A stretch of DNA of 61,324 bases, filler included, from Hausera hauseri (GCA_046269625.1; 11 parts of 11 records of this genome joined end to end with filler, not necessarily neighbours in it); one strand, 5' to 3'. Shown: positions 1 through 31,223, counted from the first letter of the whole stretch. A program made the numbers and translations. The notes: generated by a model not told the origin, from the letters alone.

Positions 1-1023
1 CAATAACAACACCTAATTCAACATACAATTGCAAGAGCCTATAATGTATCACACAGTTAGACTTTTTCTACTGTGTGAGCAACAATTTTGTAACTCTCGA
101 ACCGAGAGGACATTGATTTATGGCAGCCAAAGGCAACTGATCCAATTTGTCATGATTATCAGCCGGAATTCTTATATCTACCTCAAACATTAAGCCCTGT
201 TTTTCCTCAACACAGTCAACATAAGGTAATTGTTCAATCAAACTGTTTAATCTCTCTTCATCCAACTTATGTTCGCAAAAAGTAAAGGTTGTAATAAAGC
301 CTAGCCAGACAAATTATTTACATGTACATACAACAGACTGGTGCTTTCATCAGTTGTGACTCTATGTTTATTTACAAAAGTTATGCCTCCGCAAATATCA
401 GATTGAAAGAACTGATACATTTCACGATCCTGTATTAACTCTATTTTATAGGGACTAGATTTCAGCGGTGTTGTCCGACTTAAACCCGAAATTGAGACAA
501 AGTTAGTAGCCTCTAAACCATCATGTTGCATAACCTCTTTCCTAAACCGCTTGAAAACACCAGTTAACAAGTATATATCCAATTTAATGTATACAAGCAT
601 ATAATCCAAAAGATTGCTGCACCTATATATCTACCAAGTAAGTTTAGCTTCCCGATAATCGCTATCACTTATACTATCATCCCATTTCGGTGGTAAGTCA
701 GTAATTGATAGCAAATCACTGAATGATTTAGCTACAGTGTATGGGGAAATACCTTTTCCTTTAATAATGTCCGAAGGAAAGGCCGTTTCTGTAAATGTGT
801 ATGTATCTAAATTTGAAGCGAATACTAACACACTTTTATATGAACACTGTATATTTGCCTGCATTGTTAAAAATTTCTCTGTTGATTGAGGAATAACATT
901 CAAATTCCATATACCGAATTTATTTAATGCGTGTTTCAAGATATGATGGAGATCGTAGCCATGCAAATTATGAGAAATGACATAATTGATATAATTTTGA
1001 TTATGGACATTCATCCATTTCAT
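1..1023 (-). pseudogene. Maverick/Polinton protein-primed DNA polymerase B fragment (copy 1, decayed)
   Basis: Collinear pPolB motifs across broken ORFs: HNLHGYDLHHI, KGISPY, YIKLDIYLL, ICGGITFVNKH, YVHVNNL, FEVDI. Clearly homologous to the + strand copy at 4393-5896. Confidence 0.88.
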
Positions 1024-1384
1024 GTTAATACTATATACTAGTCATTAATCATCACTTACATGCACGTTTTATTTCTCGAACTTTGGTCGTTGCAACTGGA
1101 CATCTTAGATGGTAGTCACATTGCCTCAATGAGTAAAAATTATAGGCTGAACTAGTTTCGGCCACCTGTAAATTTGGACTCACCTAAATGAGTTGAGTCG
1201 TCTTTACCCATGATCACTTTTGTATTGTTGTTGTTGTTGTTAATTAAATTAACCGAATGACTACATCTTTATTCTGTTGTTTGAATTACAGAAGGACAAT
1301 CAAGTCCATTTCAAACTAAATCCGAGTTTCCAATAATGATAAAGTCGGATCACCACTACCATCACCACCACACAAACCACACAC

Positions 1385-1959
1385 ATTAATCAATTCAGCA
1401 GGAGAATGAACGAGTCCATCGGAATTAGTTACATTGCAATGTTGCTTGAAACAAATCTGATTTGCTAACTGCCACATTGGAATGTTGGAATCACCAATCT
1501 GATCACATTTGACAAAATCTTCCACAAACCGTATTTAACGTGGATTGTCACCCAATGCATAGTAATCCGCCAATTTCTGATAAGTGCGAAAAACCTGGCA
1601 GAATATCGTGTCAATGTCACCAACAACCTGCGTCATATGTCGTAGATAAGGTTCTCATACCCTCCAATTCTTCTCAGCAGACAGAATTATCTCTTCAGGC
1701 AAACAGTATCGCACATCATGTAAAGGTCGATCAAGATTATAAAGGTGACTCCGGAGACCGTTGAAGGAATGATATAGGCTAATGATTTATGTCAAGTGAG
1801 TCATGCTGTAAGTAATTCCGCGGGAAAAGAATCACAAGTATTTATACTACAATGCAGGGTGAGCACGCATTAACCAATTTAGCTAGAGAATGAACGAGTC
1901 CATTGGAATTAGTTACATTGCAATGTGGCTTGAAACAAATCCGATCCGCCGACTGCCAT
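1385..1959. repeat. Imperfect ~90-bp direct repeat pair (1385-1476 and 1868-1959)
   Basis: Both copies contain gagaatgaacgagtccat.ggaattagttacattgcaatgt.gcttgaaacaaatc. On the - strand they read WQLANQICFKQHCNVTNSDGLVHS and WQSADRICFKPHCNVTNSNGLVHS. Confidence 0.85.
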
Positions 1960-2361
1960 GCAGAAAGTTCAAGTCCAATAAGGAAATTAATTCGTTGCCG
2001 TTTTCGTTTCCACTCATTTTCGATACGTTTTATGAAGAGAAATCGGACTATTAATTCAATATGCTCTCGTCAGTTCATTATCCTGGTTTCTGTCAGCTCA
2101 CATAGATACTGAACGTCAAACACATATCCAGTCATTATGTCATCGGTCTATTTCTGAATTTTACTCTCAATGTACTCTTCCATTTAAGTTGTAATAGTAT
2201 GGCTGATATGTTTATACTTGCATAAAAGAAATAAGTTTCATATTACCTTTAGTGTATATCAGTTTATTATATTATTTATAACTGTAATTATTGTTTTCAA
2301 TTTCAAGTTAACATTTACTTTAATTTGTTTAAATTTAGAAATGTAAGCAATATTCCATGTA

Positions 2362-2903
2362 TTGCGTCTCCCACATATATGTAGACGATCAGTTCCATCA
2401 ACAGATGGCGAAATATTACAAAATTGCACGGCCACGTATGTGTGTCCAACGTGTGATGTTTCTTCCAAAGGCTCGTACACCGACTTTTATGAGGTGCACA
2501 AGCATTATCTCGGACCACTGACTCGGTCTAAGATGATGATGGTTATGCATTGCACTACATACCTACGCTACTGCAATACTAAAATGAACAACGTTAGTGG
2601 TTGTCATAGTGCAATGGAGCAATACTATGGCAGCACAACGCTGCACAATAAACGGGCCTACTTTTGCCCCGGTTGTTCAAAAGTTGCTGAAATCAACTAT
2701 GAACAATTTTATAATCTGCGCAAGGACCACTTAAATCAGTTTAAGCGGTTGAAAAAACAACTAGTTATAGACTCAACTAAAATCAGCAGCAGCAGTAGCA
2801 GCAGTAGAAGCAGCAGCAGCAGCAGCAGCAGCAGCAGAGCAGCAGCAGCAGAGCAGCAGCAGCAGCAGAGCAGCAGCAGCAGCAGCAGAGCAGCAGCAGC
2901 AGC

Positions 2904-2938
<35 letters not shown>

Positions 2939-5896
2939 GCAGCAGCAGCAGCAGCAGCTTCCCCTTAATAACCAGTAGGAAACGGCAGGCCTAAACAAGT
3001 CTTGAAAACTTCATCAGAAACCGTACCGAGCAGCAGCAGTAGCAGCAGCAACAGGAGCAGCAGGAACAGCACCAACAACAACAACAACAAGAACAGGAGC
3101 AACAGGAAGCCAATATTCTCCATATTGCAGTCAGGTACCATCTGAACAGATTGTACGTGGACATAAAAATGAACATGTCGGCGAAAACAACAACAACGCA
3201 ATTGAGACATGTTGCGCAAAATGTTCGCCAACGGTTGGAATCCGAAGTGAAGAAATTCCAATATAACTGCAAAGTACAATATTATGCACTGGCAGAATTT
3301 GAAAATTTGGAAGGTGACAGGAAACAATGTTACCTGTCACATCGAGCCGAACCGTATTCCAACCATTTTATTACCGATATAGGCAAAAAGCTGGAGGAGA
3401 AAATCGCCAACTACACGAAAAAGGGCAGTGGATAGCGAATTATAAAAATTGTCACCCTTGCAGTTTATCATAACAAAGTCGAGTGACATAATATATTTGA
3501 ATAGACGATCATTCATACCGATATCTGCAGCTCTGAAGCAGTCTCTCGCGGTAGAGAATGTAAAAGATACTAATGATGAATACTGTTTTCTTTACATTAT
3601 TGTGGCGGTATTAAAACATGACAAAGTGGTCAGAAACATGCTAACCATCCAAATCAGTATCGGCAGTATTTTTCCGAATTGGATTTCGATGAAAGCTAGA
3701 TGCTGGTGAAACTAAAAACCATACGGGCCTTCGAAGGGCGTAATTTGACACTGGCAATCAATGTTTTTCGGTAAAACTCAATAGTTGAAATACCGATAGA
3801 TGAAGAAATCCAAGAATTTCTATGTGGATATAATCTATCGTAGTCGAAACCCTAATGGCAGCCCAATATATTTTTTGCTATTGGAGCAAAAGGAAAAGTA
3901 CCACTACGTTGCAGTAACAAATCTGAACAAACTGCTGAACATGCAACATGACCACTTCTTCAAAAAACGGATACAGTGTAAATGGTGTCCCGTACGTCTG
4001 CATGGATTCAGATCAGAAACAACATGGGACAAACATGTGACTATGTGCAGACAAAATTCGACAGGAACCATAATATATATCATGCCCATCAAAAATGAAA
4101 TAAGGTTCACAGATTGGTCAAAAACACACAGTCCGGCATATGTAGTATATGCCGATATTGAAGTTATCTTACCACGACACAACATATATGACCAAAAGCA
4201 TGTTCCAATCGCCGTCGGCATGTTGGTTGTCCCAATAAAAGCCGCGGGCAACATCAGTATTATGTTTTCCACGGATGGAATTGTGTACGCGATTTCTTGC
4301 AGCAGTTGCAAACCATAGTTGAAACTGAAATCGCACCGTAGTATTGCGATAATAGCACCAAACCTCTAATCTGGACAGATTAAAATGAGCGCTTGACATT
4401 AGCAGTCACAGATGAATGTTACCTGTGCCACAAAATATTACCCTTCGATGCAGAGGAACGGCTCGCACCGGATCACAATCATTTTACCGATCGATATCTC
4501 GGAGCCCCATGTAATTCATGCAATTTGGCAAGGCATGCGCGGCCATTCCTACCGATGGTATTTCATAACTTCAGAGGTTATGATTGTCACCATATTTTGA
4601 AATGTGCAATAAACGGATTTCCGCACTGGGAACTATCCGTAATTCTGACTACTGTGGAGAAATACCTGTCACCATCTGTTCGTATAAACCGGTTTCAAGT
4701 ACAATTCATTGGTTCATTTCAATTTCTGAATGAATCATTGTCAAAGCTGGTGAATGCGTTGCCAGATGTGCTGCTGAAATTGACTCAGTTCCGTATACAT
4801 ATTGCACGTAGTAAAGGCATATTCCCATATGACTTTGCGATATGGTACGAGCAGTTCCAGACGGCAGGTGAAATACCACCGCAATGGCCAGGTATCACAG
4901 AAGAAAAATATCACAGAGCACAGTCGTTTTGGACAGAGCTTGGCTGCAGAAACCTTTTGGAGTACATGCTTTACTATCTAAAATTGGATGTGTACCTGTT
5001 AGCCGATGTGCTTCAGACATTTCGAGCTAAAGCGTTGACAAAAGACAGACTAGAGCCGCTCAACTTTTACTCAATACCGGGAATGAGTTGGGCGTCAGCT
5101 CTGATGTTACTGGATCGGGATATCAAGCTTTTTCAAGACCCGGAAATGTACCGAATGTTTGATGTTGTTATTCGGGGCGGCATGACATTTGTCAACAAGC
5201 ATCACGTAACAAGTGATGAAACCATATAACTGATGTATATCGACATTAATAACCTGTACGGCTGGGCGCTTTCACAATCCTTGCCGTGCGGTTCATTCGA
5301 ATGGATAGTAGACAAGCAAGAGCTAGACGAAATAATAGAAAATCTGCCGAGAGCAGACATAACAGAAAACACCTCAATCGGATACCTGATGGAAGTCGAT
5401 CTCGTAGTCCGGATGAGCTGCATGATTTTCTGGGTGAACTGCTGGTCGCACCAATCAGTCAATGTCCACAGGGCTCGAAGGTGGAAAAGCTGCTTATGAC
5501 GCATGAACACAAACAAAACGGCATAGTTCTTTGGAGTCTGTTGCAATTTTACATGCAGTTGGGTGTACGCGTCACACAGCTGCATCGCCAAATCCGATTC
5601 ACACAGGCCCCGATATTCAAGGCGTATATCAATCCGAATTCAGAAAACCGAGCTACAGCTTGTACGAAGTTTGAAAAAGACTATTGCAAAGTGAAAAACA
5701 ATTCTCTCTACGGAAAAACAGTAGATAATCTGAAAAATCGGCACAATTTACGCCTGTGCAATAGCGAAAAGCGATTAGTCACGAACACAAACAAGGCGCA
5801 GTTCAGGCGGTCAATGCATATTGCCAATGGATTGGTTGCCGTGCTTTTAAACAGGGAAGAAGTCGTACTGGACCGGCCAAGTTATATAGGACAAGT
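2362..5896 (+). pseudogene. Maverick/Polinton pPolB (copy 2, decayed, truncated at contig end) with N-terminal Cys/His-rich region and endonuclease VII-like insert
   Basis: Motifs in order: KKGSG(W), ENVKDTNDEYCF, HYVAVTNLNKL, VVYADIE (Exo I), CYLC...DHNHFTDRYLGAPCNSCNL (EndoVII-like), [43 protein letters not shown] (motif A), KNNSLYGKT (motif B). Several stops and frameshifts. The 5' boundary (2362-3150) is less certain. Confidence 0.9.
2784..2958 (+). repeat. Interrupted (CAG)n microsatellite
   Basis: About 175 bp of cag repeats with agag interruptions, followed by a Q/E-coding tract at ~3028-3105. Confidence 0.97.
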
Positions 5897-5996
5897 NNNN
5901 NNNNNNNNNNNNNNNNNNNNNNNNNNNNNNNNNNNNNNNNTTAATTAATTAANNNNNNNNNNNNNNNNNNNNNNNNNNNNNNNNNNNNNNNNNNNN
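5897..5996. other. Artificial contig spacer (N44-TTAATTAATTAA-N44)
   Basis: 100 bp: 44 N, a six-frame stop linker, 44 N. The same structure occurs ten times. Confidence 0.99.
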
Positions 5997-6032
5997 CTTA
6001 ACCGTTTAAATCAATTTTAACCAAATAACAAA

Positions 6033-6542
6033 TTACAATAATTCTACAGTACAAGGCTTTGTATTCGCAATTGTCTCAATCCGAATTGTCGGTAGTTTTC
6101 TCAAATCTCCTCCCTGAGCGGCATCATCGAAGGAGCCTATTGCGTCAGAAGAGGTGGCGCCCAACAGTCTGGGTTGTCTCAATTGATTCATTCTTTCTCG
6201 TAGGTCCATTTGGGAATCTAGTTGACCTTGACTGATTAAGGGACTCGTCTCCAGATTGTAACTATGGTAGGGCTTGATCCGAACAACTTGGGTGTAACTT
6301 CCGTCGGAGTAGTATTTTAATTCAGTGGCCTTAGCCCGACACACTGGACATGTTGTTTTTCCATTGTCGAGTGTCCACTTTTTCAGACAATCTCGACAGT
6401 GCTTATGGCGGCAGGTCTTGTTATTCAAAACCACGTAACCTTGTCTCAGGTTGGCATTGCATACAGGGCATTCATTATCTTCTTTGTCCCAATCGTCTCT
6501 ATCTAAGTCAACCTGGATCGTTAATTCAATGGGTTTGAACAC
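6033..6542 (-). CDS. C3HC4 RING-finger domain (C-terminus of the accessory polyprotein)
   Basis: CPVC-x15-CRHKHCRDCLKKW-x8-CPVCR with all eight Zn ligands and the conserved Trp. Confidence 0.9.
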   Translation of the reverse strand: MFKPIELTIQVDLDRDDWDKEDNECPVCNANLRQGYVVLNNKTCRHKHCRDCLKKWTLDNGKTTCPVCRAKATELKYYSDGSYTQVVRIKPYHSYNLETSPLISQGQLDSQMDLRERMNQLRQPRLLGATSSDAIGSFDDAAQGGDLRKLPTIRIETIANTKPCTVELL

Positions 6543-7449
6543 AAGACCATCTCCGTCTTGATACAGGTATCCATGAATTACCTTCTGCTTAGGGTTAATG
6601 GAATTTTTTCGTGGGTCACAGTTTACTTGTATTAGTGTCCAATCTGCTATAAGGTCTCGATCTAAATCGGGAATTCTTCCTTCTATTCGATATCTTTGAT
6701 ATTGTTTCTTTAGTAGTATCCGGATTTACTTATAGACTGGAACTATTATTTTTCCTGTCCTCTTAGAGTGGAAGACTGATGTGAGATAATTTCCTAACTT
6801 AGGGTTTTTCCAAACATATGTATTTTCAAAAACTCTTTCTGGGGCAATTTTATATAAAACATGGCTTCTTTGATCATTTTCTTATTATAATATTCTGTAG
6901 TGATCAGCATTCTGGGTGAGTCCTGAGTAGTTTTACAATGGACATTTTCCTTGATTTTCTTCCATACAAGGACACTGACTTCGGTTATCATGGGTTTCAT
7001 AATTTTTTTCTCCACAGGTTTTACGTGCTGGGAGGTACTTGGTTTGTTTTGTTGGTTTTCCTTCTTTGGTTTCTTGTCTTTTCTTTTCTTCTTAAATAAA
7101 TAATTATAAATAGATAGTGTCTTCCTGGACTGGGGCTTCTCTTCTAATTTCGGTTTCTTAGTTATTGTTTCCGGCCTCGTTTCTTCTTTGTGTTTCTCTG
7201 GATACTTTGATGTTATATCTAGTGTTTTGCTTTCTTTCGTGATTGTCTGTAATTTTGTTTTATTTTTTTCTTGTCCTTCCATAGGTTCTTGTACTATGAT
7301 CGTAAGACTATGCTTGCCTGTTGGCTGGATGGTCCTAATCGGTGAGTAGGGTGCGATATTCTTTCTATATTTGGTATCTATCTGTTCGGGGTTTAGGAAA
7401 CCACGTAAATTGTATGTGGGGTTTCTAGGGGCCCATTCACGCTCCCATT

Positions 7450-7950
7450 TTAATGACCTGTAAATTTCTTGCAAATATTTGGAGCGTTGGCTAGCTGTTA
7501 GGAGTCTTCGGATTTTACCCGAGTCATTGTTCATTGACTCGATCATCAGCTTGAAGAAGGCTTCTAGAGCGGTTGGTCGATTTCTTCATTGTACGGTCTT
7601 CTCTATTCGTTCTTGGGCCCATGGGTGAGTGGCCATTTCCCTAATTCCGGCAACATTTGCGTCGGATATTTCTAGCAACTCGATTGATCGTTGTACATTA
7701 TATCCGGTTAACATACAACCGTAGAGACAATGATCCAGTTCTGAACGGACTTCTTTAATATCTTTTCCTCTTATAAGCTGTTCCTTTCTTAAACCGGTCA
7801 CTTCTGCATACGATTCTTGGACATGTTTTCGGGGGTTTATGATTGTAGAGTAAATTTCAATCCCATCTCTTTCTCTAATAGATATTTCAATGGGTATTCC
7901 ATATCCATTGTCTCCTCTGCCACAATTTATTGCTATGATTCTTATGTTAC
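7450..7950 (-). pseudogene. DEDDh (REX4/ISG20-like) exonuclease-fold domain lacking the Exo I acidic residues
   Basis: IIAINCG...IEISI...GIEIYSTIINP...EVTGLRKEQL..GKDIKEVRSEL...LYGCMLTGYNVQRSIELL follows the REX4 pattern VALDCE...RVSIV...LYD.YVKP...VSGI...L..A..F..V..E....L.G.ILVGH.L.NDL..L. Confidence 0.75.
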
Positions 7951-8623
7951 GACCATCTTGGACTAGCCTATATGACTGACGATGTTCATCCTTTTCTACC
8001 TCGGTTGGGGTTTGTTCAAATTCTATAACTGGCAAGCCTAGGTTGCAGTTCTCTCTGTAGGTCACTTCGAACATAATTTTAACAGGAAGGGCCGCTAATC
8101 TAAATTCGAGACCGTAATTTATAAGCTCTATACCTCTTCGGTTTATTTGAAATGTGCTGAACCAATATTGATGCCCTTCATTGGAGTTCCAGTTTTGGTT
8201 TTCCATTCTATAATATATTTCTCCGTTAGCTAGATGGATGTATATATCCTGAATTTTAGCTGGTCGATTTCGAATTAATTCCCTTAGGGAATATGCTTTG
8301 GCCTGATTGTTCTCGCGCATTGCGTAAAGGAAGATTGCACGATTTTCCTCTGTAATACCTTTTAGATCGTTGGGGATTTCGTTGGTTTTTGAAATTTCGA
8401 TATAGATTTTTGCTTGTAATGCGTCGGATATCCGCCTGTAGATAGACTTCGATTTCGGGATGAACACTGTGGCCTGTTCCCGGAAATATTCGTCGATGCC
8501 AAGTTGGCTATCCAAACTTACTGTTTTGAAAAACAAGAAATAAGGGTCAATCCTATAACAAAGTATTGTTCTAAATCTGACCCAATTCTTTGTTAGATGG
8601 ATGAATAACCCGGCCTATAATTG

Positions 8624-10035
8624 TCAGGTTATTCCATCACTGATTTCGTCCTGTGGTACCATCACCCTTAATTCCCTCTCGTTGATTTTATGACGCTTAT
8701 TACAATAGTTTTTGGTAATGAATCGACAAAATGCAATTAAATTTATGAGAGCAAACGTTGACGTTCTAATAATCGATATTAATGGCAAAGTTGTCCATTT
8801 AGTTAAGTTTTTCGTTTTAGCGGTAGTCGTAATTTTGTCTTCCGTTTTCTCGTTAATTAGTGGTTTTGTCAAGACAATCTCGTTTAGGGTTTGTACTGTA
8901 AACGTTTTACTTTGTCTGTTTTCTGCACCTATTTGTATTATGTAGTTTGTTTTGGGTTTCAAATAGGTGCATTTGATTTGATAGCTACCTTTATCCAATG
9001 TTACTTTCTGATTATTGTGTAATGTTCGGCAGCTTATTTCTACATCGTAATTCAGTGCTTCCTCCACAGCGAATGTTATTTCATGTTGCTATGTCCAATA
9101 TTTTACATGAATCATTTCTTGATCCTACTGATGTAATGCACTTGTTCGAGGGATTCTATTGGAAGTTAAAATAGTCGTATTCATTTTTGTAGTCGTAATT
9201 ATACTTGTTGTCGTTTCGGGCGGAATTCCCAAAATTAGATTTTCCAATTGGTAACTTCCTAGGTAAATGCTCGACTGGTTTGGCCGAGTTTCATATAAAT
9301 CTAACCGAATCCGGTATTTATATCTCTGAGATAACTTACAGCACTTATTCGGCTTTTCGATGTCAATTTGACAATATTGTTGATTATGAGCTGCTTTGTT
9401 CGCCCTTATAAATTGAACCGTGATTACTCGTCTTTAATTAACCGTCCTTTTGTGTCTATTTGGATACAGTGGTCCTTTGGATTTTCTGTTATAGGAGCTA
9501 TATTTTCTTCTAGTATCCGTTTTAATGGGTCGACGGACTGGAGCATGTCTTCTAGTTCTATATTAAGACAGTCTCCATAAGTTCGTGGTATAACTAAGTA
9601 TGAATTCCGTTTTATTTCGGCGTGTACATTATTACAGTTCGACAAATACGAACGATAACTGAGAGTGTAAGAATGTCCGTAGTCTACGTTGCAGCAAATT
9701 GTATCATCTTCTGACTCGAAATTACAATCTAATTTGGCTTGGCTTGATAGGTCATGAAATAATTTTTGGATTTTCCCCCCATATGGTCCTGGTAACCTAA
9801 ACCCGACACATGAAGCTTCTGGTGAAAAATAATCTAATTTTATTGCTCGTAGAAGTTTTTCGTCCTTTTGTTCTGATTTGTGTTCAGAAGTTCCCTCCTT
9901 TGGCGGTGAAGGTTTTAATCCGCTTTTCCTGGTTTTATATATATCGCTCAATGAAGTTTCATCGACCCACCATTGGGCATTAGAATTGGGTGTTAGGGCA
10001 GCAATCAACGATATGGCTACTATTATCTGTGCGTA
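8624..10035 (-). pseudogene. Type I membrane protein module: signal peptide, two Cys-containing beta domains, Thr-rich stalk, FN3-like domain, TM helix
   Basis: Signal-like YAQIIVAISLIAALTPNSNA (9976-10035) in frame with integrase. FN3 signature LKPKTNYIIQIGAEN. TM WTTLPLISIIRTSTFALINLIAFC (~8720-8797); copy B has a cleaner TM, LISIIGTLIFALIMIIAFC. Confidence 0.72.
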
Positions 10036-10079
10036 AGATAACGGTCTAGTAACGATTGACGAAGTCCTTGTTACTTGTT

Positions 10080-11128
10080 GTCTTAGATTGTAGGGTTTAG
10101 CTGGTCTTATATCTATTTTATCCACTCTATGGATCGACACAACTTCCCCTTTACCATTTTTGTTAACATATACCATAGTTGGCGTTGTGCGGATGATTTC
10201 ATATGGTCTTCTTCCGATACGGGTTAGTTTCAAAGATGTACCTTTCTTCGCGACCGGGTAATGTAAAGAAACCAAATTTCCTTTTTCCAGATCATGGGGC
10301 TTAGTCTTTTTATCGTATTGTTTTTTAAATTGTTCTTGGTATCCGAGTGATAATGTTTTTGCAACTTCCAAACACTTTTGAAATCTTGTCTGTAAGACTT
10401 CGGCAAAGTTTTGCTCTAAATCCTCGAGGTTCCTTTCATACGGGGTCATGCCTAGATCGGTAGTTAAATTGCTTCTCATCCATACATCATAAAGAACGGT
10501 GTAAATCCTGTTGCTGGACGTGGAGTCGTATTAATCGCGAATTGTGTTCCTTCTAAGAATTCATCCCAATCCTTTTAATCTTTTGCCACTACTGTTGATA
10601 ATATCCGAATAACTGTTGCGTTCATCCGCTCGACCATTCCATTACATTGGGTATGGTACGCGGTAGTAGTTAAACGTTTAATTTCAAATATTTTAATAAT
10701 CTTTTCGAATAACTTGCTCGTAAAGTTTCTTCCTCTATCCGTTAAAATTTGTTCTGGTGGTCCGTTCCAGCAGATGATTTTTCTTACTACTGCGTCGGCT
10801 AGAGCTTCTGCCTTTTGATCTAACAGTGCCATTAATTCAACAAAGTGTGTGAGTCGATCTACGCATGTTAAGATATATCTGTTATTCTTGTGGGTTTTCG
10901 GCAACGGTCCTACTATATCCATAGACATGGCTTGCATGGGCCTGTATGGTACGTTTATAGATCTTAATTCTGCTACGTAGCTTTTCGTTTTTTTTGTTTT
11001 GTCGCGCAGACTTCGCATGCTTCTACCCAATTCTTTGTATCAATGTAAATACTTGGCCAGTAGTATTTATTTAATATCCTTTCTAATGTCTTCTTCCAAG
11101 ACATATGTCCGACTAAATAAGAATCGTG
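10080..11128 (-). pseudogene. Gypsy integrase (rve core, GPY-like motif, C-terminal tail)
   Basis: SMDIVGPLP, YILTCVDRLTHF, ILTDRGRNF, TTAYHTQCNGMVERMN (D,D35E), GRRPYEI, PYNLR. Confidence 0.93.
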
Positions 11129-11228: not shown

Positions 11229-11459
11229 CGTATTTACAAATTGGACGTCCTTGCATTATTTTGGACGTCTTTATAACAGTTGGATGAAATGAAAATTGAG
11301 TGTACAACGACAACATCGGTTAAAGGCGGGAAACAGTGATTAATCGTAAATGGGGGTAGTAGCGAAGTAAATTACAGATTATATTTCCGAGGTAGAATAA
11401 CAGATGAACCAGAGTTATTAATAGATGTTGGAATTATTTCCAAAGAAATAAATAGAATA

Positions 11460-12037
11460 GTGGCCATAATTACAAATGAGCAAACTACAGATGAAGCTAC
11501 AAGAAAAGCCAAAACTGAGCATTGCGTAGGACGTATTATGGGAATTCAAGATTCTACTATATATTTCGAATACATACAGACGGATGAAGATAAAGAACAA
11601 TATGAAAAAAATTTAGGACCACCAAGCGAATTTGTACCGCTTACATCAAGGCAGAAACGACTTGTTGAAAGGCCAAGGAAAATACGAGGAGATATCGACA
11701 ATAATGGGGACTTAATAAAAGAATTAAGGCAAATTTCTACACCTACGCTTGATTCAAGTAGTGAAGAATTAACGGACCTAATGCAGAAATACATATAGTG
11801 AATAACTCTAGCCTTAGTGGTAATATACTAGATGAGAAGGAGAAAGTTATATATAAATCAGCTAGAAAGATAAAAAATTCTCGTTTTAAATTATCTAAAA
11901 GTACCTTAAACGACGAAACGGTCATTGAAAAAGTCATGGTAGAGTATATCATACAAGAAATAAGAAAAGTTTTGTTATATTTGGCCATTAAAACAAAACC
12001 AACAAAAGAAAAGAACTTAATAAAGCCACCAGCTTAG
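11460..12037 (+). pseudogene. Unknown A-rich coding sequence upstream of the glycoprotein (probably element-encoded)
   Basis: Two abutting ORFs (112 and 79 aa) with the same strand and base composition as the downstream glycoprotein. No motif recognised. Confidence 0.35.
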
Positions 12038-12189
12038 CTAGGAAAGCCGCTAGGAAGCTACCTCGAGACGTAATTTGGCCCAAATTGTTTAAAAAGGAAG
12101 ACGATAATCAGTATGGACCATCCTCTAGAAGTAGAATCGAAGACGTTGTGCGGAATCTGACGTCAATCGGTACTAATCGAGGAGGAGAT

Positions 12190-13960
12190 TCATTCATTAA
12201 TCAATTTCCTAACCTTTATGATGTTGGTCAAACAAATATACCATTGTGATAAGTTCTAACTTGGCCAAGAGACAATCATTGTTGTATTTAGAAATGTGCG
12301 AAGACGCCAGACCGCACAAATTAGAAACAAAAGAAAAAAGTTATGTGCTATATCAAAAGCGCGAATTAATTTCGCTAGACAGAGTAGAAAGTTTGTTACG
12401 TAGATCTCGTAGTGTTTTTCATTGCGGACAGGTGCATGGACATTCATCGATAATAAAGCCGACAACTCCATGGATCCCAATGAATTTGGAAAAGCAATAT
12501 TGTAAACAAGGTAGAGAAACTGGTATGGTATGGAGCCCGAAATACAGCAATGAAAAATAATGAGATCATTTAAAGTAACAATTGTACAATTAGATATGCA
12601 TACAGCAGTATGCGCTGGAGCAGAATACTATACTGGAAAAGGAAAAGAAAGAGGTGTAATAGTTGACTTTTACGAAACCGAAATGCGAATGCAAAAGGCT
12701 ATGTTTCATAGTGTTACTAAGCACTATACTGAAAATCAGAAATGCCATATATAGGTCTGCACCTGCACTTTTAGAAGTTCTATTATAATATGGGAACCAC
12801 CATCTAAACAGATTGTAACTTTATGAAAATTAAAGAATTAAGCTTTAATGAAACTTCTGGGAAACTATACGTAAATAAAGCGGATGGTAGTACAAAATCA
12901 CGAGAAGACGTAGCAGTCCAACCTACGCCAATTATGTTAGTCTCTGACGTTCAAGGGATGAAATTTGTAAAAAAGGATGTACTCACCAGATGTGACGTAG
13001 TAATTGATGCCACTAACTATGTAGCATTTTTGTACCCCAAAAAATTAATATCAAAACTTTCAAACTCCAGACATAAAACGTACGAAGTGAAGATTACTGG
13101 AAAATAGAGACGATTACTTCTAATACAAAGGACAAGCTGGATTAACCTAACTGTATCATAAAATGATAACGCACGATTGTAAGTTTGATATGGAGATTAC
13201 GAGAACTAAACTGGCATTGATATATGCAAGCCCAGAGTTAGCGTCACCGATAATTCTAATGAGAGAAGGTATATTGGGTCGAGTTACGGGTGACGTTTTG
13301 TCCCCATTAATGTAGAAGCGAAGTGAACTTCCTGTCTTATATCAAAATACACAATGATTGGCTGTGCCACTTACTAGAGTTCTGCTGGCAAATACAATTC
13401 AACCAACGATTTTAAAAGAATGCAAGGCAAGTTTAGGAGAATCAATGTTCAGACGTAGTGAAACTGATTGGGTAAGCTTACCAAATTGAGATTGTTACTC
13501 CGCCCAGCAAATTGACTGGAACCAACTTGGTAAAAGAAGCAACGGACCACAAATTTCAAGATATCGCAACTAAAGGTATTTATAGACCAAAGGAAGTCGA
13601 AGAATTTAGGCAGTTTCTTGCTTTTCCACGTCAACGTATGCACAAATTAAATCGACCCATGTACACATTATTAGAAGATACTCGCTGTCAGGTGAAATGG
13701 GAATTATTACTTGGTGGTAACCATTACCAAACAGTAACCACAGAAATTTTACATAAAATTTGAGGAAGATTTTTAATTTTCGGAAAAGCCTCATCTTGAT
13801 TTATGGCAATGTATTTCCTAGTCAAATTAGTCAAAGCAGCGATTCAAGCAATCATAAATGAATACGAAATATTCACGTTGACAGGATTCTCGTGTAAAAT
13901 TTTAACTGCAATCATAACACCTCTTGGTAAATTTCTAAGAGCATACGAAGAGAGCAGGTG
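12190..13960 (+). pseudogene. Chuvirus-type (class III) fusion glycoprotein / env-like gene, decayed
   Basis: Signal-like SLINFLTFMMLVKQ plus YHCD, then RSVFHCGQVHGHSSI, YCKQGRETG, CAGAEY, SPELASPIILMREGILGRVTGDV, FQDIATKGIYRPKEVEEFRQFLAFP, and C-terminal FLIFGKASS..MAMYFLVKLVKAAIQAIINEYEIFTLTGFSCKILTAI. The order matches recalled chuvirus glycoprotein motifs. Confidence 0.78.
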
Positions 13961-14589
13961 GAAAACCAATGAGGAACGTCATGTTGGCTACCATAATCGT
14001 TAGCGACAAAGAAGACATACTTTCAAATATGGACGTAAACTCACTAGTTCAGATGATAAAGAACCTAAGGGAGGAGACGCCGTCTCCAGAATAAATAGAC
14101 ACAAACCATATTCTGTCATACAACCACTGTTGCCTATATTACTTCCGATCTCACCAGTATATAAAGATTGTGTCAAACGATCAGTGAGTTCATATCAAAC
14201 ATAAAACCTTTTATCTTCGAGGATCCTTATGAAGAAATGAAACACCATGGCGTATTAAGGAAAATGCATGAAACAACAAATACGTTTGCACCGCACAGAC
14301 GCCAATCAGTTGATGACCATAGAATATTATATTCCTCAAGAATACTTGGCACTATTGAAGCCAGACGGACAATTTTGAAAGACCAAGAAATGCAAATTTT
14401 CCGGAGCCCAGAACTGCGAACCATAATTAGAAGTGAAGAATCAGAAGTGGTCAATAATGAATAGTATCAGAACGGGGAATTGCGACAACTAGTTGTAAAC
14501 TAGTTATAAATTCCAGAAATCAGAATTAATTTATTTAAAGTATCAGTAATTAAGCACTCAAAAGTCACACCAAATTGTTATGGTACAAT

Positions 14590-14770
14590 AATAGAAGGAA
14601 GACTCTTCGCTAAAATTCATATTGAAGACTGAAAAGTCTATTCGCTAATTGGTACATGGTCAGAAATATCACTGATAAAGCAGAACTTTGATTATGTGAA
14701 AAAGAAGATAATGCACCATCAGTTCCAAATAAAAGTCTAACTAACCTTTCTGGGCATTGTGCAAACATAA
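14590..14770 (+). pseudogene. Retropepsin-like aspartic protease relic
   Basis: GRLFAKIHIED*KVYSLIGTWSEISLIKQ resembles ALIDTGSEISLI; D>G and G>W each need only one base change. Confidence 0.5.
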
Positions 14771-15039
14771 ATACAAAAACCCGAACAAGAAATGTGACAC
14801 AATTTGCAAGTTTAAATATGCATAATTAAATATTTCAAATGAGGATGCCAGAAAAAGTAGTCAAATTTTTTTCATAGTTTTAGACATAATTTATATCATG
14901 GTGGTCACCGCGTCTCTAATTTTCTATAAATTAATAAACTATAATTATTCAATAAAATGTTTTTCTTTTAGTTTTATTTGAAATGAAACAGTGCACAATT
15001 AAACCTTGGGCACCCTTTATTCTCAGTGATAATTACGTT

Positions 15040-15821
15040 AATTAATTCAATTAAGTCCTTTTGGGTTAGAGCTGTATCCAGAAGCATTTCCACACTAAAT
15101 CTTCGATTCTGTGGGTACATTACCACTCCATGAATGTGTACTGAAACTTTCGGAATTTCGTCGTTTACTCTATTTAAATGAGTCCCATTCTTGGTCGTTT
15201 TCGTTCTTTGGAGGTATGTAGTGGATTATTGGAGAGTATGATTGCTGGATGATATTTGCATTTTGCGCAATTGCTCTTATTTCGCGTAATCTCTGTTACA
15301 TTTCAGCCATGTGTGTCGTCCGAAAGCCAACTCTATTGCAGGATGCATGTTGCAAGAAGTTCAACAACTCATATAATTCATCCGCTTGGATAAATCCTTT
15401 TTCTGGGTAGTTGGCCAATTCTGAAGATACTTCTCGTTGCTATTTTTGTACAAATTCTAATTTATTAGCTATTTTTGACTAGGTAAAAGCGTACTTGTTT
15501 CTGTAGACCTCCTATTCCTTAGCCAATTTATCCATTTCGGTTTTTCTTGGGTCAACACGAATTTGGATTTTCTGAATACAACGTATCTGGCTTTGTAGGT
15601 GTCTCATTCTGTCATCGCTAATTTCGACTATTTCGGCTACTAGTAACAATGTTAGTTTCCTCATTTCTTTTAACACTCTGGAGTCTGGGTCTATTTCTTC
15701 AATTAATTTCTTTATGAAGTTAGTTTCCTCAAAAGTGAGTTGGTGGTGTTGGGCCTAAAACAGATACCTAACTAAATGCGTATAACTTCAAGTAAATCCA
15801 GCGAAATTCCAGACACGAATT
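15040..15821 (-). pseudogene. Decayed retrotransposon gag-protease relic
   Basis: The - strand reads PKVSVHIHGVV...FSVEMLLDTA (LDTG-like), preceded by heavily broken coding-like sequence. Confidence 0.4.
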
Positions 15822-15921: not shown

Positions 15922-16899
15922 TACAATATGATTCGACATGCGTACGCTGTATAACCTTGCAAAGATTTGGAAATGAAAACATGAATACATTATCCTACCG
16001 CCTGGCCGTCTTGACCTGACTGATCTACAGTTAAAATAAGAATCCTGTACTCTACAAATGGTTTCTAATTACAAATGGTTTCTCGGGCTAGATGAATCAA
16101 ATAATATTGCCGACATGAATTATATAGATACTAATTTGCTTAACCAATTGAAGTCTCTCCATGATATTGTTGACAAGAAAATCGATTTTCTGTTTTGACT
16201 CTAAGGAAATGTCAAAATTATCATTAGAATCAAATTCGTGTCAGGAGTGGGATGTAAGGCAATTGAATCAAACTCATTTATTGGATGACGGAATACCCGC
16301 TGTTGTTGATATTCGTATGACAATGTCTATGGCAATATCTACATAGGGGAGATTATTGTTCATCACGAGATGCTGTTATGGAATACACGTTGTGTATATA
16401 TATATAATATTATACAGATTGTGGACTTTGTGATTGTATAGTAAATTAGATTTCGATCAATTAGAAATTGATTTTTCTGCTGCTATGGCTATTGATAAAG
16501 ATAATTCTGAAATATAGCATATTGTCGGTAATGTCATATCTGCATTTATTAGTTCTGCTGATCCTTCTATCAGTTTGCTAATGGCTAATGTCGTTGATAA
16601 ATTTGTCAAATGTTTTCATGATCAATTGGATACCCAATGGATTGGATCTATTCGTGATTTAACATCTGTCATCCCATCTGATTTCCTTCTGATTTTCCTA
16701 ACATCATTTATCAGTCCTGTCATTCATAATTTATTCCATGATAATTTTGTACAACGGCAACAATTGGGTTTGTTGAGATTAATCAGCCGTTGACAGTTGA
16801 TATTACGCCATCAATGACAATGGATATACGTCATCATCATTACCGTTTTCAGCGTCAATTGCAGCCGTCAATAACAATGCAGTAAAACATGGAATTTAT

Positions 16900-17245
16900 T
16901 AAACATTAATGGATAATGAATCTGATGACTAACATTCATTACGAATTGATGCGACATTATCATCTTTATCACTAACAACAGCAACAACAACAATACAACA
17001 AAATGATATTGATAAACAACAAATTATTGATGATATTCGCCGAAAGGAATTTGGTATTGGACTCGAATTAGCCGTAACTGATGGAAAACTTGTCGATAAT
17101 TTCAACAAGCGAATGACGAGACTTGTTGAACATTTATCTGGAGATTTGTATGCTAATCCGAGACATTTCATATTGGCATTGTCACAAAATGCTGATAATC
17201 GATATGCTAATGGTGCTGTACCGACATTAGATTTTACTTGGTTGT
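16900..17245 (+). pseudogene. NO VEIN (NOV)/sacsin-like GHKL ATPase N-terminal fragment
   Basis: IIDDIRRKEFGIG...RMTRLVEHLSGDLYANPRHFILALSQNADNRY...PTLDF matches the NOV-family pattern IESIRREEFG...LS.ELYS.D.HF.LEL.QNADDN.Y...PTL.F. It may extend upstream to ~16160. Confidence 0.78.
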
Positions 17246-17247
17246 TT

Positions 17248-17907
17248 AATTTGGCAAATGATGATTTATTGAAGATCGATGAAAAGATTATATGAACGCA
17301 AGGCGTGTTGCAAAAGAATATGAATCGATGTGCCGTCGGTTCCTCCTCAGAACACACCGAGAGAAATTAAACAAGTTGAATTGTGGACAAAATATAAATT
17401 GGAAAAAGGCAATGCACTAAAAACGGAGGATTTGTTAACAGTAACCAAAAGAACTCTATTTGCATATGAACAGCGTATTCTTTGTTGGGGTCATCATCCC
17501 GATATTTGGCATGAAGCAGCCTCATACATGGAACAGGCGAGAAAATTGTTGGCAGATAAAGGGAACCAAAATAATGCAAAAAGTTCGCCGACAAAGTATC
17601 TGAAATGTATCAGCGATCTACCACGTTATTGAAAGATAATTTATTGTTAGCATTTGCGTTTGCCGATTACGAGGAAAGTCGCAGTCAATTTAACAAAGTC
17701 GAAGCCACTTACAATACTCTACGAGGAAATCAACAAATTGATCAGACATTGGTCCACATTCAGTATTCAAGATTTGTTCGTCGATCAAAGGTAATTACGG
17801 CCGATTGTGAGGTGTTCAAACAAACGCAGGAATATCCGAGAACGTCGTATCAAATTTACGTGAATGCTGCCAAAATGGAACATTGCACTAAGATAAAGGC
17901 ATGTTAA
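17248..17907 (+). pseudogene. CSTF3: Cleavage stimulation factor 77 kDa subunit (HAT repeat) internal fragment, intronless and frameshifted
   Basis: [33 protein letters not shown]...[47 protein letters not shown] are collinear with CstF-77. Confidence 0.93.
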
Positions 17908-18012
17908 TGTAATTTTATAATTGAATATCTTATCATAGACAATTAAATGGAAATCACTTAAAACCGACCAGGCAACTGGAACAAAACCTCCCCTGCCAGC
18001 GTCGATTGCGGC

Positions 18013-21000
18013 ATGGCGACACTTCTCACTGCTCTGTTCGCTGCGCAACCAAGGAGTTGCTTAGTTGAGGGACCGAGCACTCCTGCCTCCTATGCGCTCC
18101 AACATTCCCGCGGCATTACGCTACATCCCCTTTCCCTTTTTATTTTTTTATTCACAACAAACACATGCACTAAGTACTACATACAAACATACTGCACAGA
18201 CTTTACTCATTATCTCTCTTGGGCACCTCCGACTTACGCCATGAAATGGTTTGACCCTGCTCTCCCGATTCTCTATCGTCCTTTGCATTTAGCAAACATT
18301 CAATCATTCATCTCACTCTCCATTTTTGTATCCAGGGCGGTTCGGACCAATATCCTTCTGCTGAAAATTCCATAAAAACTAGATCGGGTCATCGCCCTGC
18401 TGACTTTACACCATCTGCTTCTAACCTTTCTTTTACGGAGTTTTCCCTCGATAAAACTAACTTAAGTCTCACCTGGCTACAATTTCATTTACAATGGCTT
18501 AAAGCCAATCATATTACGATTCTTTCTTGCGTGCCAACAATTTGTTACTTCTCCCAGCAAATATCAAGCAGCAAATCAATAATCTTGCTGACATTCTTCC
18601 TGAACACCGTACGACATGCTCTACCAATCTGTACTCCATACCACAGATCCACCAATTGATAATATAATACAAAAATACTTCAACGAGCATACTATAGGCA
18701 ATCGAAAGCCTTCTGATTTTCTACAGACCCCTATTTCACAATGACGCGCTCCTGGAGTTATTCCCACCAACAATGCGGATATGTTTCGTCGTTATTTCCG
18801 CTCCTCCTTGCTCACTTCCATTAGGGCACTACTTACTGTCGTCGACGGCTCAATGGCCATTGAAAAACTCTCCGTAATGGCTGATAAGAGTTGAAATTCT
18901 TCAACTGAATAATACATCGCCTATAGCTGCCGCAACCACTTATACGCCATCACACAGGCACCATTTTATTGTCACAATTTCAAATGATGCAGAAACAATG
19001 CGACACACTACAAAAATCAATTTCCACGATTACGGCCCAACTTAGTAATTTAGCTGTGCCTCGACGAAGTGAGACCCGTGTTTTGCGCGGTCGTAGGCTT
19101 TCCAGGAATTCCGCAGAGATGCAAAGAAGTGTCTCGGGCTGTCGATTTTACGACGAACGTTATGCCTTATCTGCATTTATCATACAAAATGTCAATCTCA
19201 GGTTAGGTCGTGTGTGCCGGGATGCAAACATTATAAAAAAATTCAGTTTTTCTCCATCTTCTCGCTCTTCTTTTCATTCCTCTTCTTTTTCCCAACAATC
19301 CTCTAAAAACTAACAACGCCGCCAGATGCCACGGCACATTCTCGTATAGGTAATACCGCTGTCTTCTGGCCGTCTGAACACCACCTCTGCAATTTTTCTG
19401 CTAAAAGCTGCGTTGTTCCCTAGCGATGTTTCACATATCGACTTCCTTATAGATTCCAGAGCTGCCTTTTCGCTCCTTCCCTTGTCCTTCACTTCTACAT
19501 GCACTATAGTTTCTTCTCCACCGCTCTTCACTACCAGTGGTTAACCGTTGACTTTACAGGTACCACGGAACTGATTTTCGCATTCGCCAACTTGCCAGAT
19601 AAGTTTGTCTGGAAATTCCACGTGGCCAATATTAAATCTCGCATAATCGGTTCAGATTTTCTGGCCGCACATGATCTGCTAGTTGACTGCAAGTATCGCT
19701 GTATGCTACGCAGACTCCGTCGTGGATGCTAACAAATTTCTTCCAAACAGCCCAGTATAAACACCATTGTTTGCTGCTATTAACTCACGTGAATTTGACA
19801 ACTTGTTCGTCGGCTGCTAACGATACATTTAGTAATTTATCCATTTTTTCAATTACATATAACGTATGAGTCGTTTTTAAAACATTCGAGTAAACGGAGT
19901 GTTGGTTGTGGCAGTTGCGGTCGTTCTTTGCCAATATTTTCCACTGTCGCATCTGATGATATGCCTCAATCATTCTCATCGCTTGATTCCAATCTCAAAT
20001 TTTTCTTGTTTCGACATATTGAAAAAGGACTGTAACTTTAAGCCTCCATCCACAACTTATCGCCATATAGTTACCTGTCATCAAAGACCTATCAGACAAT
20101 AGGTCATACTATTATCGCCTCGTATACGGAAAGCCGTGGAATCGGAGTTTAACGAACTTGAAAAGGCTGGTATTGTTTGCAGTTCAAAATCGCCATGGAC
20201 CTCATTACATGCAGTAGCAAAAAATATGGCACTTTTCGGCCATGTGGTGACAACCGTGAAGTAAAAAATCTTACCATCATGGATGCTTACCCGTCACCTC
20301 TCATAAAGGACATCGTGCACAGTCTTAACACCAATACTTATTCCACAATCGATCTGCACGAAGCCAATCATCAAATTCCAGTTGCACCTCACGACACTTC
20401 AAAGACTGCTGTTATTACTCCTTTCGACCTCTATGAGTACACCTTTATGCCATTTGTCTTACGTAGCGCTTCCCAAATTTTTCACCGACACATTGATATC
20501 GTTCTCTAAGGCCTTGACTTTGCTCATCCATACATTGATGACATTAGTTGCATCCACATCTGTTATACAACATTAAAAGCAACTCCGTATTATCTTTCAC
20601 AGACTAAATCACAGCAATTTACAAGTCACTTTCTCCAAGTGACATTTTTTTTAAAAACGTGTTAATTTCTTAGGCCACATCATCATTCCTCACGGCCACT
20701 GTACACAACCTGATCGACTTTAACAATTGAAAAACATAACGCTATTAACAACTACTGTGGATATGAGGAGTTTTTAGGCACACTCCAATTCATCCACAAA
20801 TACGTACCACATTGCTCTGAGTTTACAGCACCTTTCGCACATCTATCATCCGGGAAAGAAGGCAATTAATCCACTGGGCTCCTGATTTAGTCACCAAATT
20901 TGATCACTTACGCTAAGGCCTAAAAACGCAGATTTTATACTTACCACCGATGCCTCTACCACAGCTACCGGTGCAGTACTACACCATATTTCCAACGGAG

Positions 21001-21945
21001 TCGACGAACCATTAGAATTTTACTCCTGAAAACTCAACCCGAAAGCCGTTACTCAACATTTGACTGTGAGTTACTCGCCATAGTTCTGGCAATAAACCAT
21101 TTAAAACACCTTCTCTCGTCATTCGTTATCCAAAGTGATCACAAGCCTCTCTTTCATATAATGTCTCTAAAGCAGCCTTCAGCGAGACAATAACGACAGA
21201 TATAATACCTGTCTACATTCGATTTTGTTTTAAAATACATTTCAGGCACAGACAATTTGGTAGCAGATTTTCTGTCGAGGTCGGTTGGCTCCATTACAGT
21301 TGAGCCGATTTTCTCATCCGAAGTCTTAAAGGCTAATCAACCATCTGCTGACTTCCTTAGCTCCTTCAAATCGTTTGAGATCATTGATGACATTGAATAT
21401 GATACGTCGAAGTTCGGTAATAAAAAGATCATTCTAACTCCACCTTTAGAAAAGTCTGCTTTCCTTCATACGCATTCACTAAATCATTGGGGTTCGAAAG
21501 CAATCTTTCGCCTGCTTCAACGTCATGTAGTATGGCCATCAATGCGCAAAGATATACAGGACTAGGTTAAGGAATGCGTAGCCTGTCAAAAATACAAAAT
21601 CAGTAAACATCTTAAACCTCCGCTGTACCATTCCCCTATACATCACGTTTTCATACAGTTCATCTTGATCTCGTTGGTCCTTTACCTTCTGACAACGGGC
21701 ATCAACATATTCTTACTATGATGGATCGTGCTTCTCGCTGGCCTCAAGCCGTTCCTATTCGTTCAACTAACACTGATTCAGTAGCCGACGCCTTTATAAA
21801 AATCTGGAGCAGTCGTTTTGGTTCCCCACGTTATATAATAACAGATCAAGGACCGCAATTTGAATCGGAACTCTTCAAATTACTTGTTAAACTCTTGGGG
21901 ATATCCAATTTCCACACAACACCATATCATCCTCAAGCAAATGGT
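18013..21945 (+). mobile_element. CsRn1-clade Ty3/Gypsy retrotransposon, decayed (Ubl-gag-PR-RT-RH-IN)
   Basis: Gag IGNRKPSDFL and CHCC knuckle CIYHTKCQSQVRSCVPGC; PR FLIDSRAAFS; RT FRPCGD, YSTIDL, PYIDD; RH TTDAS, ELLAI, VADFLSR; IN VHLDLVGPL, ITDQGPQF, TTPYHPQANG. Confidence 0.92.
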
Positions 21946-22720
21946 GGAAAATGTATATAGTATTCACTTAATAAAATTCCTTTGTCATCACACGCATCAC
22001 GCTTGAAATGAAATACTAATTCTGCTAAGTCACTTCTCATGCCATAACACTCATTCACATTAGCTAATTTTCGACCAATCCCAATTCCCCTTGAATTCGA
22101 TCCATAGAAATTCCTCCTCCCAACCAACCTACTATTCATTCTCACTCTATTCAATCTTACAAATAACTTAATTTGCTGGGCCCATACCTTTACATGGAGG
22201 AAAAACTCATCTTTGACTTTGTTTCCCAGTGCACCCCTTTTAACCCCTTTAAGCACGCCGACAAGCACTCCAGCAGCACAGCCCATGTAAACATTCACGG
22301 AGTCAAAATTTTGAAAACAGTAACTATTAATCTTGTTAAATTCACCTCTATCTGAATCTACAGCAACATTGTCCGGTTCGCCTCTGACGTCAAGTCTCTC
22401 ACAGAGATAACAGTAGTAATGTCGATATTCTTCGTAAGAACTGTGGTGCCGGCGTAGACTGTTGCCCTCCGGCCCATTCGGTTGGTGCGGCCGGGTTTTC
22501 CGTTGCCGACGTATAGGGCGCATAGACGAGCCCTGATTTTCTACCTCGAAAGTGACAACGGATCCCAAGTTTTTATTCAAATCATCAATTTCCTATTTGG
22601 GATAATATAGTTGTAGAGAATAAAATGCGGAAAAATGCAGACAAAGTCAAAGCACTGTTAGAAGCACCCTTCCAAGAAAATCCGGAAGATGTCAAACGTT
22701 TCCTTGTAATGGTAACATAT

Positions 22721-22797
22721 TCACCAAATTTGATCACTTACGCTAAGGCCTAAAAACGCAGATTTTATACTTACCACCGATGCCTCTACCACAGCTA
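22721..22797 (+). repeat. Exact 77-bp copy of 20891-20967 at the contig end
   Basis: tcaccaaatt...acagcta is identical at both positions and the identity stops immediately upstream. Confidence 0.95.
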
Positions 22798-31050: not shown

Positions 31051-31223
31051 TAAAGAAGACTTTGCTCGGCTAAGTCGGAGGATCGAAATCCTGGAGTTCA
31101 CCTGCTTTCTTTTCGCTCATAATTGAAATAAGTCCAAAGAGCTTTTAAAGTATTTATTTATCCAATATTTAAACAAATTTAAAATAAATAATAATTTGCT
31201 TATTATTTATTTTTGCTGCTCCA

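Follow-up and report, generated by a model that had tools for sequence, protein, structure and literature searches.

The closest described systems to the element analysed here are the GAG-ENV-POL Ty3/gypsy errantiviruses of Platyhelminthes, Nematoda and Bryozoa, which carry an envelope protein (Env) of the herpes simplex virus glycoprotein B (HSV/gB) type (Chary and Hayashi, PMC13524379). Our element lies in a 61,324-nucleotide stretch of DNA from Hausera hauseri (GCA_046269625.1; the window), in which we compared two broken copies of its 3′ part, copy A and copy B. We consider it probable that the integrase (IN) frame of this Ty3/gypsy element continues into a signal peptide, three fibronectin type III (FN3) domains, a transmembrane (TM) helix, a short tail and a stop, and that a gene for a predicted dead nuclease joined to a RING follows separately; the FN3 protein may act in attachment.

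The likeness to the gB-type errantiviruses lies in a related locus, L001, and in 13 of the related polyproteins P0024-P0039, where a gB/Monjiviricetes-type fusion protein is found with Pol; by eye, the L001 Env resembles that of the planarian Smed_errantivirus_1 (PMC13524379). The words fibronectin, FN3, exonuclease and RING are absent from the main text of that paper, as are fibronectin, fn3 and exonuclease from its text supplements, and in these parts of the source we found no description of anything 3′ of IN; copy A's own env is not on its contig. The Burro (GYPSM1) planarian giants, elements of over 25 kb, share with our lineage a huge single polyprotein with env in frame before pol, ubiquitination-linked accessory domains, accessory open reading frames (ORFs) that can also be polyprotein subdomains, and ankyrin repeats (here in P0026, P0035 and P0036). 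We compare Burro by its description in a review (PMC6431247), whose account lists AIR1, MATH, BIR, BCL2, ankyrin, SUMO-like and dUTPase domains, with no FN3-TM module after IN and no cupin-DEDDh-RING ORF, and gives the env as gypsy/F-like, unlike the gB-type env of L001 and its kin. Exonuclease ORF3s in rotifer long terminal repeat (LTR) elements are already published (PMC5408684, PMC6338049). The bdelloid elements Juno and Vesta resemble ours in having a 3′-5′ exonuclease-fold ORF downstream of pol, but their ORF3 is a DEDDy protein with catalytic residues and no TM, whereas here the fold is DEDDh (ISG20-like), preceded by a cupin barrel, predicted to be dead and joined to a RING (PMC5408684). 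A retroelement with FN3-TM after IN, or with an exonuclease-RING ORF, was not found in a literature search that left out subscription journals, Repbase reports and bioRxiv supplements, nor did the literature searched describe any retroelement whose Pol is membrane-tethered and freed by host signal peptidase.

The window is made of 11 short contigs with N-linkers between them and a spacer with stops in all frames at every junction (for example 5897-5996), and the order of the contigs carries no meaning for adjacency. Copy A, which fills contig 5997-11128 on the minus strand, preserves in decayed form the 3′ end of a Ty3/gypsy element: it holds an rve integrase, and the gypsy-type Pol order of protease, reverse transcriptase (RT), RNase H (RH) and IN is visible in the relative L001. 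The copies are 72.6% identical over 3,319 nt and 82% over 584 nt, and their breaks fall at different sites. The 5′ part (gag, env) is absent from both contigs, and contig A ends inside IN, without RT or RH. No second copy of the contig-end sequence, as an LTR repeat would give, was found within the window.

The integrase frame and the FN3 membrane protein

As the first-pass annotation had read it, neither a stop nor a shift of frame separates the IN tail of copy A (GRRPYEI...PYNLR) from the signal-like peptide behind it. The features of this frame, in the order of translation, and the extent of copy B are:

10482..11128, minus strand: zinc-finger end and catalytic core of IN (Pfam rve), with stops and frameshifts; the contig ends at 11128
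10083..10467, minus strand: C-terminal part of IN, ending with the PYNLR motif (sequence; BLAST ranks)
9976..10047, minus strand: internal signal peptide (predicted by hydropathy), which shares the IN frame in A and would be cleaved after ...SNA
9556..9850, minus strand: first predicted FN3-like domain (strands 77-161 of the P0008 model)
9233..9500, minus strand: second predicted FN3-like domain (191-282 of the P0008 model), with a frameshift near 9430 in A
9128..9232, minus strand: Thr-rich stalk (sequence; low pLDDT in the P0008 model)
8876..9103, minus strand: third, membrane-proximal FN3 domain (Pfam fn3; structure alignment)
8726..8782, minus strand: predicted TM helix (hydropathy (KD) peak; helix 430-457 of the P0008 model)
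8624..8725, minus strand: short cytoplasmic tail (~33 aa) and the conserved terminal stop, 8624-8626, of the Pol-FN3-TM frame (ends of P0007 and P0008; run X1)
38714-43089, plus strand: copy B, the same stretch from the end of the IN core through the RING, broken elsewhere

The intact relatives come from a library-wide search with an 880-aa frame in which stops were read through as X. Among its 15 matches four were strong: P0008 (479 aa, signal peptide to tail), P0007 (189 aa, FN3-TM-tail), P0006 (333 aa) and P0005, which holds the accessory gene described below. The signal peptide was called by hydropathy and the (-3,-1) rule for signal peptide cleavage, and P0008 has the same signal peptide and A|QW site.

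Three beta-sandwiches and a TM helix make up the predicted structure of P0008 (mean pLDDT 60.7), and on this relative the seven-strand sandwich aligns with FN3, the first two domains being less firmly supported. The third domain aligns with a fibronectin FN3 at Z 9.5 (rmsd 1.9, 76 aligned; VIA). In A it carries the LKPKTNY motif, reaches Pfam fn3 at E 0.018, below the cut-off, and has two stops, at 9089-9091 and, just ahead of the domain, at 9125-9127. The two Cys-patterned domains reported earlier are present, and probably FN3-like too, since the models give beta-sandwiches that align with tandem FN3 structures: Foldseek tandem-FN3 matches reach E 4e-10 for the first in the P0008 model, and the second aligns with an IL-20 receptor chain at Z 8.1 (rmsd 2.8, 88 aligned; VIA). 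Hydropathy (KD) of the TM helix is 1.82 in A and 2.3-3.0 in P0007 and P0008.

Between A and B the ratio of nonsynonymous to synonymous change (dN/dS) lies below 1 in every coding segment (0.02-0.56, lowest in the RING), at 0.24 in the C-terminal part of IN, 0.35 in the first FN3-like domain with its spacer and 0.14 in the second. The coding segments are under purifying selection.

The wider lineage shows the fusion in intact form. L001 has one ORF of at least 3,221 aa (P0023), which encodes in order a gB/Monjiviricetes-type env (E 5e-94), three protease-like domains, RT, RNase H, IN, a signal peptide, an FN3-like ectodomain, a TM, an 84-aa tail and a stop; a separate DEDDh ORF starts 338 nt later. 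With the 3′ part of L001 as query 70 long proteins were returned, and we took the L001 protein and its 16 best matches as a group of 17 polyproteins (P0023-P0039). The signal peptide follows IN directly in seven of them, follows an inserted protease-like or ankyrin stretch in nine and is missing from one (P0027). By hydropathy 15 of the 17 end 24-122 aa after the TM, and P0031 was added by eye, which brings the count with signal peptide, ectodomain, TM and short tail to 16. A single-pass profile of the window-type third FN3 matched eight of the 17 at iE <=0.1, and none of 54 others; a shuffled sequence was matched once, at iE 2, and the FN3 profile-profile comparison was weak (probability 44, E 2e-4). 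Judged from these sequences, the fusion of Pol to an FN3-TM module is real in the wider lineage.

The IN core of A (Pfam rve, E 1.3e-15) is 43% identical to the IN of L001, and the best 16 BLAST matches of A's C-terminal IN half among 72 polyproteins all fall in the P0023-P0039 group. By BLAST rank the nearest relatives of copy A appear to be giant GAG-ENV-POL elements with a gB-type env. In L001 and most of P0025-P0039 the fusogen is seen upstream of Pol in the same polyprotein, and on this layout the FN3 module is no replacement for env. Scans for loci of the close family gave no match in viral contigs or metagenome contigs, the scan for the distant family gave none in viral contigs, and a word-seeded search for longer relatives of P0002 found none among 1,999 candidates, which is weak evidence.

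The relatives vary around this plan. P0023 has a signal peptide-FN3-TM module twice, the additional one lying within Pol at residues 1380-1566, after the second and before the third protease-like domain, and P0024 has an FN3 match ahead of its Pol too. P0035 and P0036 insert ankyrin repeats after IN, before the signal peptide. An extra protease-like DSG/DTG domain stands right after IN in P0027, P0029-P0034 and P0039; such a domain could free IN from its membrane stub.

We propose that one polyprotein (in the relatives Gag, gB-type Env, protease(s), RT, RNase H, IN and the FN3 module) would thread the endoplasmic reticulum membrane several times. The internal signal peptide after IN would be translocated and cut by signal peptidase, giving a type I glycoprotein of ~440 aa made one-to-one with Env, and the signal stub would stay on IN until its removal by a protease. 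Release from Pol by signal peptidase, first suggested for a fused ligase, is predicted as probable for the FN3-TM protein. The FN3 protein might then be the attachment or adhesion partner of the gB-type fusogen, on particles or on producer cells; we offer this role tentatively, as possible though short of probable. Herpesvirus gB, a class III fusogen, works with separate receptor-binding glycoproteins, and in flavivirus, alphavirus and hepatitis C virus polyproteins internal signal sequences release membrane glycoproteins via signal peptidase. Both parallels are working likenesses and claim no sequence kinship: the element here is a retroelement, for which we infer cleavage and partnership. 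More speculative again is the whole scheme of a herpesvirus-like two-glycoprotein entry system with flavivirus-like processing, in which a single membrane-threading polyprotein would supply a gB-type fusogen before Pol and a signal-peptidase-released FN3 attachment protein after IN; in the window's sub-lineage a recoded or spliced junction may also couple that FN3 protein to the nucleic-acid-binding ligase, an add-on that we hold to be quite unlikely.

The main rival to attachment is that the FN3-TM protein acts outside the entry machinery, as a host-directed decoy (a cytokine-receptor-like or adhesion mimic) or as a superinfection blocker. The P0008 folds match cytokine receptors, contactins and Dscam besides fibronectin (Foldseek/VIA); the ectodomains of the relatives differ in domain number and diverge fast, with a different, Cys-rich ectodomain in the same slot in P0038 and P0039; and Burro elements carry host-manipulation domains (PMC6431247), all of which would suit a decoy. 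However, a polyprotein shared with the fusogen would tie the amount of the FN3 protein to particle production. The tails of P0007, P0008 and several relatives also bear YxxI-type motifs, which are sorting signals and would fit delivery to budding sites. We regard a decoy or blocker as rather unlikely.

Several points weigh against a Pol-fused attachment protein. The polyprotein search took proteins of 1,771-5,637 aa with a query that included the extension, and so favours long forms. In a quick tree of the IN core (135 columns) the nearest neighbours of A are P0023-P0039, but no supported branch holds A. The dN/dS intervals include 1 for the stalk and the third FN3 (as for a short IN-core piece). 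Copy B, in the same frame as A, is interrupted by two stops on the way from IN to the signal peptide; the closest intact ectodomain, P0008, is annotated as a protein by itself (479 aa) that begins at a Met; the attachment role is drawn from analogy; and the features of the junction described below are compatible with a fused isoform.

The stops of copy B, and the Met of P0008 just ahead of its signal peptide, would be expected if the membrane protein of this sub-lineage were an independent ORF3 that starts by itself, the open IN frame in A being incidental; adjacent ORFs are in frame by chance one time in three. This is unlikely in our estimation: A and B keep a common frame, without indels, through a linker of ~12 codons that holds no LTR, neither copy has a Met before the signal peptide, and such a module is in frame in 16 of the 17 related polyproteins. 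The Pol fusion may have been lost in some close relatives, and we continue to favour it for the lineage of copy A.

The stop behind the membrane helix and the accessory gene

The first-pass annotation had carried the TM tail onward through ~850 cytosolic codons, as a single type I membrane E3 ligase of ~1,300 aa. That continuity is not confirmed at the end of the tail, where the TM frame of A ends at the in-frame stop 8624-8626, with a second in-frame stop, 8615-8617, three codons on. Copy B is one base shorter at the junction and out of frame, so that it is not open there either. P0007 and P0008, 35-49% identical to A, terminate at the same alignment column as A's stop, and 298 contigs of run X1 over 8540-8760 show no alternative letter at >=10% and no indel at either stop (positions 8613 and 8614 beside them are listed as variable, in 39-40 contigs). 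P0005 and P0007 each come from a 16,242-nt contig, probably one and the same, as two proteins. In the 10 loci around distant exonuclease relatives that were taken from 134 pattern matches (L001-L010), the exonuclease ORF stands alone behind an acceptor candidate, with an in-frame stop 0-24 codons ahead of its first Met in all 10. The exonuclease profile matched none of the 72 polyproteins, and no fused TM-to-exonuclease protein was found among these or the 15 library matches. Because the stop between the TM and the cytosolic part is fixed, an outcome that the first-pass annotation had itself named as refuting its model, and the exonuclease ORF is alone in 10 of 10 loci, a single receptor-ligase is not supported as the main product; probably the FN3-TM protein and the nuclease-RING protein are encoded by two separate genes. 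The stretch behind the stop reads as follows:

8516..8623, minus strand: junction, with CARYYA, the second stop/YAG, an open stretch and a donor candidate, their function being putative
8050..8500, minus strand: cupin/2-oxoglutarate (2OG)-oxygenase-like barrel, the first accessory domain (61-205 of the P0005 model)
7440..7950, minus strand: DEDDh (ISG20/REX4-like) fold without catalytic residues (Foldseek, VIA); stop in A at 7586-7588
6920..7285, minus strand: low-complexity linker rich in Lys and Glu, with basic clusters both in A and in P0005 (pLDDT <50)
6510..6919, minus strand: conserved domain before the RING, present in P0005; frameshift near 6835 and stop 6726-6728 in A
6339..6470, minus strand: intact C3HC4 RING finger (Pfam zf-C3HC4, E 1.6e-6, above the cut-off)
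6106..6115, minus strand: purine tract, possibly the polypurine tract preceding a 3′ LTR, which would be lost beyond the contig end at 5997

The accessory gene likely encodes a separate protein and is whole in P0005 (870 aa, barrel to RING), in whose model the barrel, DEDDh and RING are folded and residues 417-743 have low confidence. Its barrel, which had been missed earlier, aligns with Ofd2 at Z 10.1 (rmsd 3.0, 135 aligned) and with ALKBH1 at Z 10.0 (VIA), and has a dN/dS of 0.13. The DEDDh fold and the RING were both recognised correctly at first. The former aligns with ISG20 at Z 17.8 (rmsd 2.7, 159 aligned; Foldseek E 7e-8, P0005 model), at a dN/dS of 0.16, and its catalytic residues are lost: ExoI D-x-E is changed to A-x-N in A, B, P0005, P0006 and P0016, and A, B and P0005 lack ExoIII H-x4-D. 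Distant relatives retain them (for example P0009-P0012 and P0014), and the exonuclease of the window lineage is predicted to be catalytically dead. The domain before the RING is 81% identical between A and B, with a pN of 0.10 and saturated dS.

The RING is found in B and P0005 as well, with a dN/dS of 0.02 between A and B. Its eight zinc ligands with RING spacing are present in A, B and P0005, as are the Trp, Pro and linchpin Arg that serve E2 binding; among the proteins compared only P0004 and P0005 have the RING pattern. The basic cluster of the linker, a possible nuclear localisation signal, fits a soluble, possibly nuclear, accessory protein. Such a protein would bind nucleic acid without cutting it and ubiquitinate bound targets, likely host factors of silencing or sensing.

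How the accessory gene is expressed may be read from the junction, where the second stop is also a YAG acceptor candidate in phase 0. After this YAG the frame of the downstream gene is free of stops for 93 nt (8614-8522) in A and 96 nt in B, up to a GTAAGT donor candidate at 8521, and in A the 93-nt open stretch has no Met. Across L001-L010 a YAG stands within 7 nt before the first Met in 12 of 14 accessory ORFs, which make up about seven independent groups, as against 165 of 746 background ATGs. Small coiled-coil-like accessory ORFs, too, have a YAG acceptor just ahead of each ATG (L001 11613-12047; L002 1773-2204 and 2669-3058; L003 588-1166), which suggests, as far as the motif tells, spliced or spliced-leader trans-spliced accessory mRNAs. 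The spliced leader of flatworms ends in AUG (PMC9851317). For the cupin-pseudoexonuclease-RING protein of A the message would be a spliced or trans-spliced RNA joined at the acceptor near 8615, and a leader exon or spliced leader could supply the missing Met. A small peptide in the +1 frame of the junction was considered (dN/dS 0.28, interval 0.07-0.80) and rejected: that frame has a stop in A and in B, the downstream frame none.

The same junction could allow a minor isoform in which the FN3-TM protein is extended into the cupin-pseudoexonuclease-RING protein, as a membrane-anchored E3 ligase, by read-through or by removal of an intron of ~50 nt. The two ORFs share one reading frame in A, and the first stop is followed by the hexamer CARYYA, a known read-through signal (PMC4132726), which follows 13 of the 6,426 stop triplets of the window. 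A phase-0 GT at 8665 and the phase-0 YAG at 8615-8617 delimit a candidate intron, of 51 nt in A and 50 in B, that spans both stops and contains B's one-base difference. The open stretch in A and B, a modest stem-loop 3′ of the junction (z -2.0 and -1.6), and the 55 and 65 open codons ahead of the barrel in P0005 and P0006 (chance about 0.03 and 0.01) would also fit. However, the second in-frame stop is present in A and in X1, the donor matches at only 6 of 9 positions, the CARYYA motif was noticed after the fact, and P0007 and P0008 conserve the protein sequence of the tail as far as the stop. L001 and L002 are without CARYYA and have their ORFs 338 nt and about 1.9 kb apart, and the searches above returned no fused protein. 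We consider even a minor fused isoform quite unlikely.

Least credible is a chance chimera of host genes for a receptor and an E3 beside a dead retroelement, which is largely refuted by the two copies with dN/dS well below 1, by independent relatives that retain both genes at 35-49% identity and by the same layout in L001 and L002. Against it stand also the many diverged copies of run X1, in which 9,365 contig pieces span all 30 bins and copies other than A depart from it where it is broken near 9430, 6835 and 6727; X1 may be the very sample behind the window, and it informs on the behaviour of copies, not on independent occurrence.

Other features of the window and implications

Further remains of retroelements lie on other contigs. 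At 11229-15821 (plus strand) a broken gB/Monjiviricetes-type env, 27-35% identical to that of L001, probably represents, by its sequence, the 5′ region of an element belonging to this lineage. At 43190-47542 (minus strand) a third, distant pseudo-DEDDh ORF (46050-46526; 25% identical to copy A) occurs with further ORFs, and near 45060 a G-rich purine tract followed by TGTTA looks like the border of a polypurine tract and an LTR. Three broken copies of an unrelated ordinary gypsy element (15922-22797, 27116-31223 and 47643-56020) stand beside intron-free host-gene-like fragments; a helicase-like fragment at 48189-49848, a weak match to Pfam DEAD, is presumably Brr2-like. A broken protein-primed B-type DNA polymerase (Pfam DNA_pol_B_2) and Polinton-like ORFs occur at 1-5896 and 31324-38613. 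Cys-rich short repeats and tandem arrays of 28, 51 and 25 nt occupy 27897-28243, 57327-57634, 58145-59092 and 61023-61322.

Considering what the FN3 protein would mean for this family, cell choice and entry by env-carrying invertebrate retroelements are largely open outside Drosophila (PMC13524379), and for the attachment step that is still missing, a conserved FN3 membrane protein made from the polyprotein of the fusogen is a concrete candidate. The FN3 fusion also implies that Pol would be made membrane-tethered and then freed by host signal peptidase, and the pseudo-nuclease-RING gene is a candidate for an element-encoded ligase of counter-defence.

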